Origin: an uncultured archaeon
Lineage (GTDB): Archaea; Asgardarchaeota; Thorarchaeia; Thorarchaeales; Thorarchaeaceae
DNA: 28,748 nt
Assembly (NCBI GenBank): GCA_964590575.1
Contig: CAZPWM010000011.1
Span: forward strand, 25,218-53,965
Direction: 5' to 3'
The translations under genes and the position numbers were made by a program. Under the pieces are notes generated by a model, which made no database searches, was not told where the DNA came from, and saw only the letters and a list, made by a program, of their open reading frames with translations. Below are positions 1,379-5,923 of the stretch, piece after piece. Each line of letters opens with the position of its first letter. The stretch's first letter is position 1.

Positions 1379-2100
1379 ATTGGCTCTATCCCTCGTAGCT
1401 CACGAGTCAGCGTTTCGATTGATCCTGGTTTGCTAACAGCAAGAGGGATTCGCATTTGATCAGACAACTCTAGAGCGAGTCTATCTACTTCTCCAACTCC
1501 GTGAAGAACAACAAGGGACGGTTTGAACTCTTGTGATTTGATAGCAATCATTGGGGCTCGACCAGTGCTAACATTAGTGAATATTAAGCACCTCTCAGTG
1601 GTGGCTCCAAAGAGCTTCAGAAATGCATCGCTGTTTAGCTCCTTCACCGCCCTTTCCACATCAACTAAGGTATAACCATATATCTCGCGGTCCATGAGTT
1701 TCTCACCAGCCTTGATTGTAAACTTCAAACGCTGGCAGAACTCTTTCGCAGTCATTGGTGATGAGAAGTCACTCATTGCCAGCACTATATTTAGGTCGAC
1801 GAGACTGACGTCCATGAGGCGAACAAACGCAGCTATGACTTGGCCGCCATTTCGCTCATCTAGCGTCAGCAATGCCATGATGAAGCGTCTTATTGTTGAA
1901 GTACCCGGAGATTTTCTTCGTCCGGACTCGTAGTCGCTGATAACACTTGGACTAATGCCCAGATGATCTGCGAGAATTATCTGAGGTAGTCTGAATCGTT
2001 CTCTCCAAAGTTTCATAGTTTGTCCTGGGTGTTCTGATAATGCGATTTCTCCAGCAATACGACGCGCAAGTCGCTCACGGACAGATGATTGATACGACAT
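1375..2100 (-). CDS. Archaeal XRE-type HTH transcriptional regulator (COG1709-like)
   Basis: LADHLGISPSVISDYESGRRKSPG HTH; C-terminal LIFTNVSTGRAPMIAI typical of this family. Confidence 0.85.
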   Translation of the reverse strand: MSYQSSVRERLARRIAGEIALSEHPGQTMKLWRERFRLPQIILADHLGISPSVISDYESGRRKSPGTSTIRRFIMALLTLDERNGGQVIAAFVRLMDVSLVDLNIVLAMSDFSSPMTAKEFCQRLKFTIKAGEKLMDREIYGYTLVDVERAVKELNSDAFLKLFGATTERCLIFTNVSTGRAPMIAIKSQEFKPSLVVLHGVGEVDRLALELSDQMRIPLAVSKPGSIETLTRELRGIEPI

Positions 2101-2173
2101 TGAACGAATTTCTGGGTATTTAGAACATAAGGATTTCGACTATTGACGAAGTAGCATCTCATATTAGAATTAA

Positions 2174-2311
2174 TGGTGGGCCGGCCCGGATTTGAACCGG
2201 GGATCCCCTGGAGTCTTGCTGGCGAACATGAGTTCGCAAGACCCAAACCAGGAATCATTTTTGGCAAAGGGTCACGAGTGGCCCACTGAAGCCAAGCTAG
2301 ACCACCGACCC
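2174..2311 (-). tRNA. tRNA-Pro(UGG) with two introns: D-loop 20a/21 (2259-2289, 31 nt) and canonical 37/38 (2213-2241, 29 nt); CCA encoded
   Basis: Acceptor GGGTCGG/CCGGCCC, anticodon arm CCTGG-TTTGGGT-CCAGG, T arm CCCGG-TTCAAAT-CCGGG; BHB central helices TTGG/CCAA and TTTG/CAAG, each with 3-nt bulges. Confidence 0.95.
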
Positions 2312-2337
2312 ACATTCAGAGATTCCTTTTATTTTTA

Positions 2338-2346
2338 GATATAAGA
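2338..2346 (-). promoter_or_regulatory. TATA-like box of tRNA-Pro
   Basis: TCTTATATC 27-35 bp upstream of tRNA G1. Confidence 0.55.
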
Positions 2347-2556
2347 GTATCTCTGGAATGTGAAGTTTTGAGAGGTCGATTGAGGAACAAATTATTCTGA
2401 ATATGAGATTAAAGTCCTAGCGTCAAGATCTTTTGTGTTGTATTTTCTTGGTTTTTTACGAATGATATTGTTTCATCTATTTGAATCATATTGCATTATA
2501 ATGTGGTTTTCTTACATTTTATTAATATCAAAAATTCAATAGATATTTTACTCTAA

Positions 2557-2651
2557 TAACCTTAAATTCAATGATAGGGAGTTTATTGTATAGGAGTTCA
2601 TTACCGCTTATCCATGACAAGAAAAGGAGTGAACTCTCAAAGAAACAGGTC
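2557..2651 (+). repeat. 95-bp mini-unit sharing both ends with the tnpB unit
   Basis: taaccttaaattcaa at 2557-2571 is repeated at 2653-2667; aagaaacaggtc at 2640-2651 is repeated at 4416-4427; internal stem gagttca (2594-2600)/tgaactc (2630-2636). Confidence 0.65.
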
Positions 2652-2652
2652 G

Positions 2653-4427
2653 TAACCTTAAATTCAACTGGTGAAAATCGTGGGTCGGTCCAAGGGAATC
2701 ATTGTCAGCGTGAAAGTGCCAATTCGATGGGATGTCATGTCTGACAGACAAAAGACTCGTTTCTCACAGATAACTGGGAGAGACACACGTGTCATCAAAG
2801 CCTACCTTGGAGTAATCGAACGTCACGAGAAAGACTTTCTTGTTGGAATAAGGAAGAAGAAGATTAGCGCGAGTGAATTGGATAAGTTGACTCTTACCGC
2901 CACTCGTGGAAAATCTTCTAGGATCTCTGTCCCTCATGACTTCAAAAAACGGTTCCAGAACATATCGGTAAATGAGTTTCAGGAATGCCGTGACACAGCG
3001 ATAGCCATGTGGCAAAGTCACCTTGAGAGAGGTGGCTCAAAACCACTGGGAGCAAGGGGATATTCATCAAGAAAGATTCCCCGCTTTGCCTTTGGAAAGT
3101 GCTTTGATTTTCTCTACACTCCTGAAAAGGAAATCAAACACTGGTTGAGTCTACGCTATTCAGTTGAATCACTGAAAAGAAACCGACGTATTCACGAAAA
3201 AATATCCATCCCACTCTCACCCTCTTCATATCATCTCAAGAGATTGAAGGATGGAGAGCTGAAGACAGTCCGACTTTTCAAGGATAGACGACGAAAGTGG
3301 TGGACAATATTCACAGTCACTTTGGATGTTGACATCACCGACTCATCGAATCAACCAACTGCGGTCTTGGGCATAGATCTCGGTATTGAAAAAGCCGCTT
3401 GTACCGTCTTGCTGACCAAGCAAGGATACAAACATGTTAGGTATTGGAAACAACGTGACAAGCTCAGACGAATGAAACACTATGACCAGATAGTAGCATC
3501 TCTCCAGCGAAAGAAGGAGTACCATTTGTCCCAGAACTTGAATTCAACCCAAGTCACAAGGCAACTGAGAGAGCTAGGCGAAAAACGTACCAAACTGAGT
3601 AAAGAGTATGACAACAAGCTTGTAAAAGACATTGCTGAACATGTACTGGAATTATCTAAGAAATACAATCTGCATGTTGTAATTGGTCAACTGAAAGGTA
3701 TCCGGTCGACTGCCAGAAAGGGAAATTACAGAGGTCGAAAGTTTCGAGGAATGGTTCATCGCTGGTCGTTTGCAAGGGTGAGAGATAATCTTGAACACAA
3801 ACTTGCATCCATTGGATTTGACCCTAAGAAGTTCTTTGCTGTAAGCGAGGCATGGACATCGATAAAGTGTCACAAGTGTGGAAGCAAAGGGTACCGACCA
3901 AAACAGAACCTCTTCGTCTGTGGAACCTGTGGGTTCCGTGCAAACGCTGACTTGAATGGAGCAATAAACATCGGTCGGCGTGTAATCAAGCTCATCCCTT
4001 CACTTAGTGATGAGAAGACTGGACTAGGAGTTTGGCTTCTCCCTAGCGAGAAGATCATCCCGAATATCTCAAGGAGCAAATGCTCTAAGAGGAAGTCCTT
4101 ACTCTCTCAGAGGAAACCAGCCTTAGTGGGAGAGTCCGTGGCTGAGTGCTGTGATCAGACATCTCTTGAGGTGTATGTGAGCACTAAAGACCCAGCCATG
4201 GCAAGTACTGTGGAAGAACCGTCTGCGTCCAAGATGAATGATAATCTTGGAGTATTGCAGCGGACAGAATCCAGTTGCCAAGAGAGGAACGATGTTCTTT
4301 TGAACTTGGACAAAGCTCATGTCACTTCGAATGACTCTGGTCATTCGAAGGCTGGTGACAGCTGTCGTGAGATTGGTGGAACACAGAAGTTTCTTGCAGT
4401 TCACTCAAAAGAAGTAAGAAACAGGTC
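2653..4427 (+). mobile_element. Non-autonomous tnpB-only element (IS200/IS605- or IS607-superfamily derived); boundaries inferred from repeats
   Basis: TnpB ORF without tnpA, bounded by the 15-bp and 12-bp motifs and abutting a tRNA fragment. Confidence 0.55.
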
Positions 4428-4434
4428 TTCATAG
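2671..4434 (+). CDS. tnpB: TnpB/Cas12f-like RNA-guided nuclease with rearranged RuvC-II and ~150-aa C-terminal tail (start could be GTG 2680)
   Basis: RuvC-I VLGIDLG (D236), VVIGQL (G339), VSEAWTS (E393), CHKC...CGTC zinc finger, RuvC-III NADLNGAINI (D427). Confidence 0.9.
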   Translation: MKIVGRSKGIIVSVKVPIRWDVMSDRQKTRFSQITGRDTRVIKAYLGVIERHEKDFLVGIRKKKISASELDKLTLTATRGKSSRISVPHDFKKRFQNISVNEFQECRDTAIAMWQSHLERGGSKPLGARGYSSRKIPRFAFGKCFDFLYTPEKEIKHWLSLRYSVESLKRNRRIHEKISIPLSPSSYHLKRLKDGELKTVRLFKDRRRKWWTIFTVTLDVDITDSSNQPTAVLGIDLGIEKAACTVLLTKQGYKHVRYWKQRDKLRRMKHYDQIVASLQRKKEYHLSQNLNSTQVTRQLRELGEKRTKLSKEYDNKLVKDIAEHVLELSKKYNLHVVIGQLKGIRSTARKGNYRGRKFRGMVHRWSFARVRDNLEHKLASIGFDPKKFFAVSEAWTSIKCHKCGSKGYRPKQNLFVCGTCGFRANADLNGAINIGRRVIKLIPSLSDEKTGLGVWLLPSEKIIPNISRSKCSKRKSLLSQRKPALVGESVAECCDQTSLEVYVSTKDPAMASTVEEPSASKMNDNLGVLQRTESSCQERNDVLLNLDKAHVTSNDSGHSKAGDSCREIGGTQKFLAVHSKEVRNRSS

Positions 4435-4454
4435 CCAAGCTAGGCCACCGACCC
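4295..4454 (+). ncRNA. Putative omegaRNA 3' region (scaffold plus guide); 5' end unknown
   Basis: Perfect 11-bp hairpin 4325-4350, closing stem 4295-4306/4398-4413, located at the tnpB 3' end. Confidence 0.55.
4429..4454 (-). repeat. tRNA-Pro 5' fragment (positions 1-24), intronless form
   Basis: GGGTCGGTGGCCTAGCTTGGCTATGA matches the predicted spliced tRNA-Pro at 25/26 nt. Confidence 0.9.
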
Positions 4455-4482
4455 TTGATAGACGGGCAGTCCTCCAACTGTG

Positions 4483-4491
4483 GTTATAAGA
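4483..4491 (-). promoter_or_regulatory. TATA-like box upstream of the tRNA fragment
   Basis: TCTTATAAC 29-37 bp upstream of fragment G1, similar to the box of the intact gene. Confidence 0.45.
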
Positions 4492-4552
4492 ATAACGGAG
4501 CTATTGCACAAGGTCAGTAATGAATAATGTCTTAACTGCTAGTCTGTATTAG

Positions 4553-4807
4553 ATGATGAGTACGATGAGTCTACTTGGCCCAGACGATTTCGACTTGGAC
4601 CCAAAAAGCCGAAAAAAGAAGCTGGCAAAGGACCTGTCTCCTTCAGTAGCGAAGGAAATCGAGAAATGGTTAGACAGGGAAGATGACCCTAAAGCATTCA
4701 GGAGAGTGTCAGAGCTGGTAGGACCAGAAGAGGCAGCCCGTTTGTTTTCTGGGCGGAGAAGACACGGTAAAAGATTGAAACCTAGAGACCCTCGACTCGA
4801 AGATTAA
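4553..4807 (+). CDS. Small charged hypothetical protein
   Basis: 84-aa ORF closely followed by a same-strand gene. Confidence 0.6.
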   Translation: MMSTMSLLGPDDFDLDPKSRKKKLAKDLSPSVAKEIEKWLDREDDPKAFRRVSELVGPEEAARLFSGRRRHGKRLKPRDPRLED

Positions 4808-4820
4808 TGAAGGGACAACA

Positions 4821-5183
4821 TTGACTGCAGAATCTGGCGAAATCGATAAACAGACACACCAGAGCAACGTACGAACATCGCTGGCTTTCATCCGTACGAT
4901 TAATGCTGAGAAAAGAACTCATCTTGCAGAGCTTCGTACAGGAATAGGGATTTTGACTATACCAATGTCGCTTTTGGCCATCCTGATTGCCACATCGAAC
5001 TATTACTCAATCGATCAAGTTTTGGGATATGTTGTAGCTCTCGCAGTTGGAATTGTCCTGCTATTCTTAATTGGGGGGTATCTTGTATTTTCATCCCTTA
5101 GAGAGATACGTGCGGATGACCGACTTCGATTGGAATGCGATGACCTCTCATGTTTAGTTGCTGAGTTTAACGACCAAGATTAG
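4821..5183 (+). CDS. DUF202/YidH-like small membrane protein
   Basis: AEKRTHLAELRTG motif followed by two hydrophobic helices. Confidence 0.65.
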   Translation: MTAESGEIDKQTHQSNVRTSLAFIRTINAEKRTHLAELRTGIGILTIPMSLLAILIATSNYYSIDQVLGYVVALAVGIVLLFLIGGYLVFSSLREIRADDRLRLECDDLSCLVAEFNDQD

Positions 5184-5815: not shown

Positions 5816-5923
5816 TGGAGCCCCAGGCGAGATTTGAACTCGCGGCCTCCTCAAAGTCGAGAAGAACGCAGGGTTCATCTCTCTTACCAAGGAGGCGATC
5901 TAACCGGTCTAAGCTACTGGGGC
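5816..5923 (-). tRNA. tRNA-Thr(GGU) with non-canonical 39/40 intron (5853-5882, 30 nt); CCA encoded
   Basis: Acceptor GCCCCAG/CTGGGGC, anticodon arm CCTCC-TTGGTAA-G|GAGG, T arm GCGAG-TTCAAAT-CTCGC. Confidence 0.9.

Follow-up and report, generated by a model that had tools for sequence, protein, structure and literature searches.

A truncated guide in the leader of an Asgard tnpB gene that may direct TnpB to its own promoter

The window, as we call the whole stretch of DNA analysed here, comprises 28,748 nt from an uncultured archaeon of the Thorarchaeales (Asgardarchaeota; GenBank assembly GCA_964590575.1, contig CAZPWM010000011.1, positions 25,218–53,965 of the forward strand). It carries a gene for TnpB, a transposon-type RNA-guided nuclease. 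This report concerns a short unit directly upstream of that gene, which holds a tail identical to that of the TnpB guide RNA (omegaRNA) scaffold followed by a truncated guide. From comparison with homologous loci we consider it likely that, through this leader, TnpB binds its own gene's promoter without cutting it. An initial annotation, made from the letters of the window, had drawn attention to the unit and offered two readings: a second small guide against the tnpB promoter, or a derivative like a miniature inverted-repeat transposable element (MITE) in tandem with the full element.

The tnpB gene occupies 2680–4434 of the forward strand, within an open reading frame (ORF) at 2671/2680–4434; the probable GTG start at 2680 is aligned with the ATG of paralogues. 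Two exact repeats frame the region. The 15-mer TAACCTTAAATTCAA stands at 2557–2571 and again at 2653–2667 (15/15 identical), and the 12-mer AAGAAACAGGTC at 2640–2651 and 4416–4427 (12/12 identical). Between the first 12-mer and the second 15-mer there is a single base, g2652. The second 12-mer is followed by t4428 and then by TCATAGCCAAGCTAG (4429–4443), which matches the resident tRNA-Pro gene with its D-loop insert skipped, TCAT at 2255–2258 being joined to AGCCAAGCTAG at 2290–2300. Both matched targets are preceded by AA (2555–2556 and 2253–2254). A stem formed by GGAGTTCA (2593–2600) and TGAACTC (2630–2636) starts 26 nt past the end of the TATA-like CTTAAAT (2561–2567). The initial annotation had described this layout of repeats, 15-nt matches to the upstream 15-mer and to spliced tRNA-Pro with AA before both, and a stem some 26–30 bp past the TATA-like element; all of these are present where it had placed them. 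The one unmatched base that it noted after each 12-mer is also there, but the register kept by the family has two linker bases instead.

Read in the family register, the parts of the leader unit follow one another on the forward strand. A pentamer resembling a target-adjacent motif (TAM), CTAAT at 2553–2557 (TTAAT in most homologues), lies directly 5′ of box 1 (2558–2571). Box 1 contains CTTAAAT, resembles an archaeal B recognition element (BRE) with TATA box, and is the putative DNA target of the leader guide. The leader hairpin (2592–2639) consists of the outer stem given above and a variable inner stem, and is followed by the scaffold tail at 2640–2651, which repeats exactly the final 12 nt of the omegaRNA scaffold (4416–4427). 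After a two-base linker, GT (2652–2653; AG or GG in most loci), which replaces the AT of the TAM, comes the leader guide or box 2 (2654–2667), delimited by the anchored comparison described below as a 14-nt copy of box 1. A Shine-Dalgarno-like GGTGA (2670–2674) lies between guide and start codon; (A)GGTGA is conserved 5–8 nt before the aligned ATG or GTG. Box 2 has no TAM, because the linker (AG, GG, TT or GT) takes the place of the TAM bases.

The 15-mer occurs in the whole 3.4-Mb genome only at its two local sites. The 12-mer has 4 copies in the genome against about 0.4 expected, and the two non-local ones lie inside unrelated coding sequence, so the 12-mer by itself could be chance. Its placement is not due to chance, since in homologous genes a guide follows the same tail at either end. 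The family consensus of this tail is ...RAAAYRGGTY before the guide, in leaders and omegaRNAs alike (...ACAGGTC here).

The motifs recur upstream of other tnpB copies, where the initial annotation had proposed to look for them. Four paralogues in the same genome, at about 41–61% protein identity, have the same layout with different box sequences. For a wider comparison, 17 loci from species genomes and 80 from metagenomes were added to the paralogues of the genome itself; 92 loci had at least 230 nt of upstream sequence, and 80 remained after dereplication at 93% identity. An exact word of 10–16 nt is common to the last 45 nt before the start codon and the region 75–230 nt upstream in 59 of the 80 loci, and in these 59 the two copies are always 90–100 nt apart. 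The mean shared word was 6.7 nt in a reverse-complement control and 6.8 nt among 6320 cross-locus pairs, 32 of which reached at least 12 nt. The start of the match is exactly 2 nt past GGTY in 55 of the 59 loci, and its end 10–18 nt before the start codon. Early stops in tnpB occur in 4 of the 21 unmatched loci and in none of the 59, which is consistent with a function.

Anchoring 60 loci on this register shows where the likeness ends. Guide and box are 92–100% identical at positions 1–12; identity falls to 77% at position 13, 50% at 14 and 35% at 15, and is at background from 16. The agreement is not a matter of invariant letters: at the variable positions 3, 8, 11, 12 and 13 the guide equals the box in 100, 100, 97, 92 and 77% of loci, where independence would give 34, 52, 29, 32 and 25%. 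Identity of at least 13/15 is found in 87% of box–guide pairs from the same locus and in 1.3% of cross pairs. Between close relatives, such as the window and L029, several box positions have changed in both copies at once.

The five letters directly 5′ of box 1 vary little. Across the 59 loci they read TTAAT in 44, TTCAT in 8, CTAAT in 2, ATAAT in 2 and otherwise in 3, with T at −4 in 59/59, A at −2 in 58/59 and T at −1 in 59/59. We compared them with the targets of the guides at the 3′ end of the element, taking the register of the leader (guide starting 2 nt after GGTY) and the identifiable targets only (n=8). Seven of the eight have A and T at −2/−1, as box 1 does. These are the empty tRNA-Pro site of the window's own 3′ guide (GGAAT); two 16S rRNA sites in genome G000, one matched by array guides of L002 and other loci (AGAAT) and one, antisense, by array guides of L004 and others (CGGAT); a site on G000 contig C10 for L029 (AGCAT); the orthologous empty site on G000 C13 for L050 (TGCAT); tRNA-Pro(CGG) for L093 (GGTAT); and, as the weakest of the seven, a 15-nt match on G000 C3 without flank homology for L032 (AGAAT). 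The L050 empty site (G000:C13, about 11908) is marked by 414 nt of homology (79%) that starts exactly at the guide. The sole exception is the tRNA-Arg target of L054 (CAACT).

Alignments also support a structured leader. Among nine leader sequences of subfamily i, the seven outer pairs are kept in 8–9 of 9; in the inner stem one of three pairs is compensatory and the other two show one-sided changes only. Leaders of subfamily ii form three helices, the terminal hairpin ending GGTCG(G) right before the guide. The support for structure comes from these alignments, as fold energies are no better than those of shuffled sequences. The conserved loop motif of the omegaRNA (4396–4408) has its reverse complement in the 3′ strand of the leader stem (2626–2636), and the two change together between subfamilies (GAGTGAACTC versus GAGTTCACTC; GAGTGAAACTC versus GAGTTTCACTC). 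The leader may thus mimic a tertiary helix of the omegaRNA, or leader and omegaRNA may pair.

The omegaRNA itself can be placed at the other end of the gene. The 3′ part of its scaffold (4376–4429, forward strand) includes the conserved GTGGAACACAGAAGTT, a hairpin with loop GTTCACTCA, the tail AAGAAACAGGTC and a linker TT, and forms the right end of the mobile unit; the GTTCACTCA motif is noted downstream of Asgard tnpB genes in a passage of PMC10691335. The guide follows at 4430–4454, also on the forward strand. In the syntenic locus L001, where the region is 82% identical, linker and guide together (4428–4454, 27 nt) show 100% conservation. The empty site puts the right end in the register GGTC-TT-CATAGCC..., with the same 2-nt offset as the leader guide. 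As in obligate mobile element-guided activity (OMEGA) systems, a conserved 3′ scaffold overlaps the end of tnpB, and the guide taken from the right-end flank matches the empty site beside a TAM.

The extent of the mobile unit was obtained by placing contigs of four independent metagenome runs on window positions 1900–4900. A 629-nt contig in run X4 covers 2040–2254 and 4429–4842 contiguously, skipping 2174 nt, with a 4-nt TCAT overlap and one other differing letter in each arm; the filled form is present in the same run on other contigs. Because this empty-site contig joins 2254 to 4429, the mobile unit is about 2256–4429 on the forward strand (2174 bp, the boundary being ambiguous by the 4 nt of TCAT) and sits in the tRNA-Pro gene. 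The leader unit (2557–2667) is internal to it, lying 300 nt inside. The unit contains no tnpA and no ORF for a partner transposase; besides small frames in or overlapping tnpB, no further ORF of at least 50 amino acids is listed within 2256–4429.

The resident tRNA-Pro(UGG) gene lies on the reverse strand at 2174–2311, with its 5′ exon at 2290–2311, a 31-nt D-loop insert at 2259–2289 and a canonical 29-nt intron at about 2213–2241. The left end of the mobile unit supplies the new 5′ exon, the 31-nt insert and the region upstream of the tRNA, while the original 5′ part of the gene is displaced to 4430–4454, where, in antisense, it is now the omegaRNA guide. In the empty allele this guide sequence stands directly after GGAAT. 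Unmodified, the tRNA-Pro gene is called neither by ARAGORN nor by Rfam at its gathering threshold, because of the D-loop insert. With 2259–2289 removed, ARAGORN reports tRNA-Pro(UGG) with the canonical 29-nt intron, and on the joined empty allele it reports a normal tRNA-Pro(UGG) with only that intron. The fold energy of the tRNA intron region is not better than that of shuffles, and a clean bulge-helix-bulge motif was not established for the 31-nt insert.

TnpB of the window scores above the cut-off with the Pfam model Cas12f1-like_TNB (PF07282, 5e-13) and below it with OrfB_IS605 (PF01385); its best relatives of solved structure are TnpB and Cas12f proteins (E 1e-9 to 1e-6). The zinc-finger CxxC...CxxC, the RuvC-I Asp (GIDLG) and the RuvC-III Asp (NADxN) are kept across the family. 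The canonical RuvC-II Glu is Gly in all 21 sequences that cover the site, and a Glu on the next strand, in V[SP]E.WTS, is invariant. Altae-Tran et al. (PMC10691335, section 8) describe a ‘rearranged RuvC-II’ class, in their view probably active, which this residue pattern fits, and the protein is probably a working nuclease. A full-length match to its own element would then be harmful, because the nuclease looks catalytically competent, and a guide limited to 12–14 nt for a site inside that element makes sense for the same reason. The TnpB family is present in 81 of 400 Asgard genomes and in 53 of the 85 genomes of the window's own family.

We infer from sequence and spacing that box 1 is the tnpB promoter. 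Archaeal transcription is expected to start about 30 nt after the start of the TATA box, and it is at about this distance that conservation begins, with the hairpin. Transcription would thus start near 2592, roughly 30 nt past the TATA-like box, and the 95-nt unit would comprise the tnpB promoter and 5′ leader. A separate transcript of 75–80 nt is less likely than a leader that is part of the tnpB mRNA, at its 5′ end. TnpB would bind this nascent, minimal omegaRNA-like leader; with 12–14 nt of complementarity, box 1 would be bound but left uncut; and its occupancy would exclude TBP and TFB and so shut off tnpB transcription. Box 2, the template of the guide, would escape targeting because the linker replaces the TAM. 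Since the Shine-Dalgarno sequence lies directly 3′ of the guide, TnpB on the leader may also occlude it and block translation. Because each paralogue has its own box and guide, the circuits of paralogues would stay separate. We infer the transcription start, the binding of TnpB to the leader, binding without cleavage and repression from this arrangement, in which a scaffold-like element beside the effector gene carries a partial match to the promoter with TTAAT 5′ of it. The own-promoter guide of the initial annotation gains comparative support from the co-variation in 59 of 80 loci, the fixed register, the TTAAT motif and the match of about 12–14 nt.

Several observations weigh against this proposal. 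Of the 80 loci, 21 lack a 10-nt match, 16 of them with an intact tnpB; three of these intact loci have 9-nt matches, and in the others box 1 is mutated or deleted or the upstream sequence is different. As unmatched loci keep an intact tnpB, the pairing of leader guide and box must be dispensable. The leader/box duplication was found in none of 11 loci of distant homologues from another Asgard family; in the loci compared, the leader feature is restricted to a Thorarchaeota-type clade. TTAAT overlaps the expected position of the BRE, so its conservation could be a promoter constraint, and the TT at −5/−4 is not common to the 3′-guide targets. Box 2 is itself TATA-like and could bind TBP. Finally, the leader scaffold, at about 60 nt, is much shorter than that of the omegaRNA, and the energy z-score of the single-sequence leader fold is not significant against shuffles.

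Four other explanations can be set against the same evidence. The tandem copy of the initial annotation, a MITE-like non-autonomous element with the same ends standing beside the full one, reflects the layout [15-mer ... 12-mer] g [15-mer ... tnpB ... 12-mer], which does resemble two units sharing ends. We regard it as highly improbable and reject it, since the empty site puts the termini of the element at about 2256 and 4429, the left one 300 nt from the first 15-mer. The small unit is therefore internal and does not define the ends of the element, and the sequences taken for shared ends differ between paralogues and co-vary within each; the genome has no stand-alone copy of the unit. A motif search of the whole genome gave 15 regular-expression matches, of which just 5 had the unit structure, all upstream of tnpB homologues. 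Of 80 diverged loci, 59 retain the layout; their boxes differ from locus to locus and co-vary inside each one. The second box is followed by a Shine-Dalgarno sequence and a start codon, not by any left-end structure. Nor is the 12-mer a target-site duplication, the outcome that the initial annotation had named as one that would refute its reading. Alternatively, the boxes could be two independent promoters, box 1 for a small RNA and box 2 for tnpB, alike through BRE/TATA constraint or gene conversion. Both have a BRE/TATA-like composition, and box 2 is kept in 13–16 intact loci despite a mutated or absent box 1. At highly variable positions, however, where independent promoters would agree in 25–34% of cases, the identity is 92–100%. 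With box 2 ending so close before the start codon (10–18 nt), transcription starting about 25–30 nt past its TATA would begin inside the conserved ORF, and the conserved Shine-Dalgarno sequence that separates box 2 from the start codon requires an mRNA that begins farther upstream. Conversion between repeats of 12–15 bp that lie 95 bp apart would, as we see it, lack an established mechanism, and we hold the two-promoter explanation to be quite unlikely.

The remaining two accept an omegaRNA-like leader and differ in what it does. If the leader guide had box 1 cut or nicked, for instance as a first step in recombination or mobility of the tnpB cassette, the intact look of the nuclease residues would be accounted for, as would the unrelated or rearranged sequence found upstream of the hairpin in some loci. 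Against this, complementarity ends at 12–14 nt in all lineages, as is typical of guides that only bind (the yardsticks being guides of ~16 nt for TnpB and of 9–11 nt for repressors), and a self-cut promoter would destroy the element's own expression. The exceptions are point changes and small indels in box 1; a shared rearrangement breakpoint at box 1 was sought in the unmatched loci and not found. We give cleavage a low probability. A role at the RNA level only, with the leader as a TnpB-binding operator that blocks translation or titrates TnpB from the omegaRNA, would agree with the Shine-Dalgarno sequence directly 3′ of the guide, with the omegaRNA tail on the leader, and with the reverse complementarity, seen in both subfamilies, between the 3′ stem strand and the loop motif of the omegaRNA. 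It leaves unexplained why the 12–14 nt that follow the tail equal a box 95 nt upstream that is flanked by a TAM-like motif, and as the whole explanation we think it quite improbable, though an RNA-level role could exist together with DNA targeting.

Truncated guides that turn an effector on its own promoter are known from other systems, which we compare here on the basis of passages in the papers cited. The omegaRNA guide of TnpB is about 16 nt, longer than the leader match, and TnpB-derived repressors use promoter guides of 9–16 nt (PMC10705468). In tracr-L of Cas9 (Workman et al., 2021, via PMC10705468 and 10.1101/2023.03.03.530964) a natural truncated guide likewise lets the nuclease bind its own promoter without cutting. 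That system belongs to bacterial type II CRISPR, with a sigma-70 promoter and a guide derived from trans-activating CRISPR RNA; the locus described here has TnpB, a guide in the mRNA leader and an archaeal BRE/TATA target. CreR and the crRNA-like (CRISPR RNA-like) mini-arrays of type I and of Cas12a V-A systems (10.1101/2023.03.10.532045, 10.1101/2023.03.03.530964) place a degenerate scaffold upstream of the effector gene, with a spacer partly complementary to the effector promoter and a protospacer-adjacent motif beside the target. The Cas12a of the V-A systems descends from TnpB. CreR and the mini-arrays are separate small genes made of degenerate CRISPR repeats, whereas the scaffold here imitates the 3′ end of the omegaRNA and is fused to the tnpB mRNA. 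Neither preprint names TnpB (0 occurrences in each). Over 2000–4800 of the window, direct repeats form no regular array, in a comparison that included no dedicated search for CRISPR arrays or cas genes.

TldR (PMC10705468) is a protein of the TnpB fold that uses an omegaRNA-like guide of 9–16 nt to bind and repress a TAM-flanked promoter. It has lost its catalytic residues, is domesticated, and represses host genes (fliC, oppA) through the 3′ guide. The TnpB of the window differs in having an apparently complete catalytic set of the rearranged type (the RuvC-I and RuvC-III Asp and the alternative Glu, all invariant); its 3′ guide still serves the mobile element, and it is the second, 5′ guide that aims at its own promoter. 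The right end behaves as in IS200/IS605 TnpB homing (Meers et al., 2023, as summarised elsewhere), where tnpB and the omegaRNA overlap at the 3′ end of the gene, the right-end flank serves as guide, and TAM and guide reconstitute the empty site; the present element differs in having no tnpA, a replacement tRNA exon and the extra 5′ guide unit. Arc, a ribbon-helix-helix (RHH) protein of IS605 (10.64898/2026.09.24.754181), also restrains the element's own tnpB at its promoter. Arc is a protein repressor, whereas the repressor proposed here is the TnpB ribonucleoprotein. The proposed circuit works like tracr-L, CreR and the mini-arrays, and TldR, and is a member of none of them. The literature searched describes no 5′ guide or autoregulation for TnpB, although supplements, which it did not cover, might hold such loci.

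The intron-less tRNA-Pro allele is still present in the population, as the empty-site contig shows. The tnpB family is tied to genes for structural RNAs. In L052 and L053 (880–1030, 2953–2970), where TnpB is 61% identical to that of the window, the same 17-nt guide CATAGCCAAGCTAGGCC adjoins a tRNA-Pro(UGG) gene with a homologous D-loop insert that shows compensatory stem changes; the leader guide of these loci is no longer TATA-box-like. At L093 (1236–1500) the adjacent tRNA gene, a tRNA-Pro(CGG), has an insert of 30 nt, and the 15-nt omegaRNA guide repeats the letters that come immediately 3′ of this insert; the insert is placed exactly between the TAM-like GGTAT and the target. In the window as at L093, the two tRNA-Pro cases, the insert splits the nuclease's own target, so the invaded gene would be immune. 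Other right-end flanks hold pieces of tRNA-Arg, tRNA-Thr, tRNA-Lys or tRNA-Met. These cases suggest RNA-guided homing as a source of non-canonical archaeal introns. We advance more tentatively, as a possibility rather than an expectation, a scheme with two guides, in which the full 3′ guide cuts the intron-less tRNA-Pro gene, the element copies itself in and adds a replacement 5′ exon and a 31-nt insert that is spliced from the tRNA and immunises the gene, and the truncated 5′ guide represses at the TATA box.

Beyond the omegaRNA scaffold, by 0–150 nt, several loci of subfamily ii carry arrays (L002, L004, L007, L008, L011, L012, L013, L015 and L048). Each array has two or three units, a unit being a short repeat ending ...GGTCGG plus a guide of about 20–27 nt. 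The guides recur between loci, and several are pieces of 16S rRNA, sense or antisense; two were verified against the 16S gene of G000. The arrays look like proto-CRISPR arrays of omegaRNA tails. We looked for the intact 16S target of one array guide in the genomes of L002, L004, L007, L011 and L013, and found the guide alone in three of the five and nothing in the other two; the 16S gene is probably unassembled there. The G000 16S rRNA gene (C73:13812–16104; C137:6600–6874) contains insertions, as 2293 nt span 1478 model positions. By eye, the match to one array guide appears to be interrupted, close to the 3′ end of the gene, by a hairpin insert of some 30 nt.

Some further features were seen in the window and in G000. 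An Rfam hit (41 bits) on the reverse strand of the window, at 5819–5923, marks a tRNA gene whose anticodon region carries an insertion of 34 nt. A tnpB homologue truncated at its N terminus (G000:C8:45909–46973) lies 2.4 kb from a tRNA-Pro(CGG) gene (43474–43550) that has no D-loop insert. A divergently transcribed ORF of 1879 amino acids, seen for example at L019:6780–12419 (G000 contig C2), is conserved beside tnpB in most loci and absent at the window. It has no Pfam domain over the cut-off, and atlas searches gave weak leads (best 0.81) to proteins with TPR and a NucS/Mrr-type nuclease.

Cas9, Cas12a and type I effectors are known to be autorepressed by means of truncated guides, which has so far been regarded as a refinement of CRISPR. 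Found in an Asgard TnpB of the transposon type, this logic would mean that the circuit predates CRISPR or arose independently of it. It would be a natural example of an RNA-guided protein competing with TBP and TFB. The leader would also be a compact, self-limiting expression module, orthogonal because each paralogue has its own box and guide. If the two-guide homing scheme holds, non-canonical introns of archaeal tRNAs, and perhaps those of 16S rRNA, are made and spread by RNA-guided nucleases, and TnpB already had CRISPR-like autoregulation and multi-guide arrays. For the archaea that carry these elements, autorepression would explain how an active nuclease aimed at an essential tRNA gene can be carried safely.

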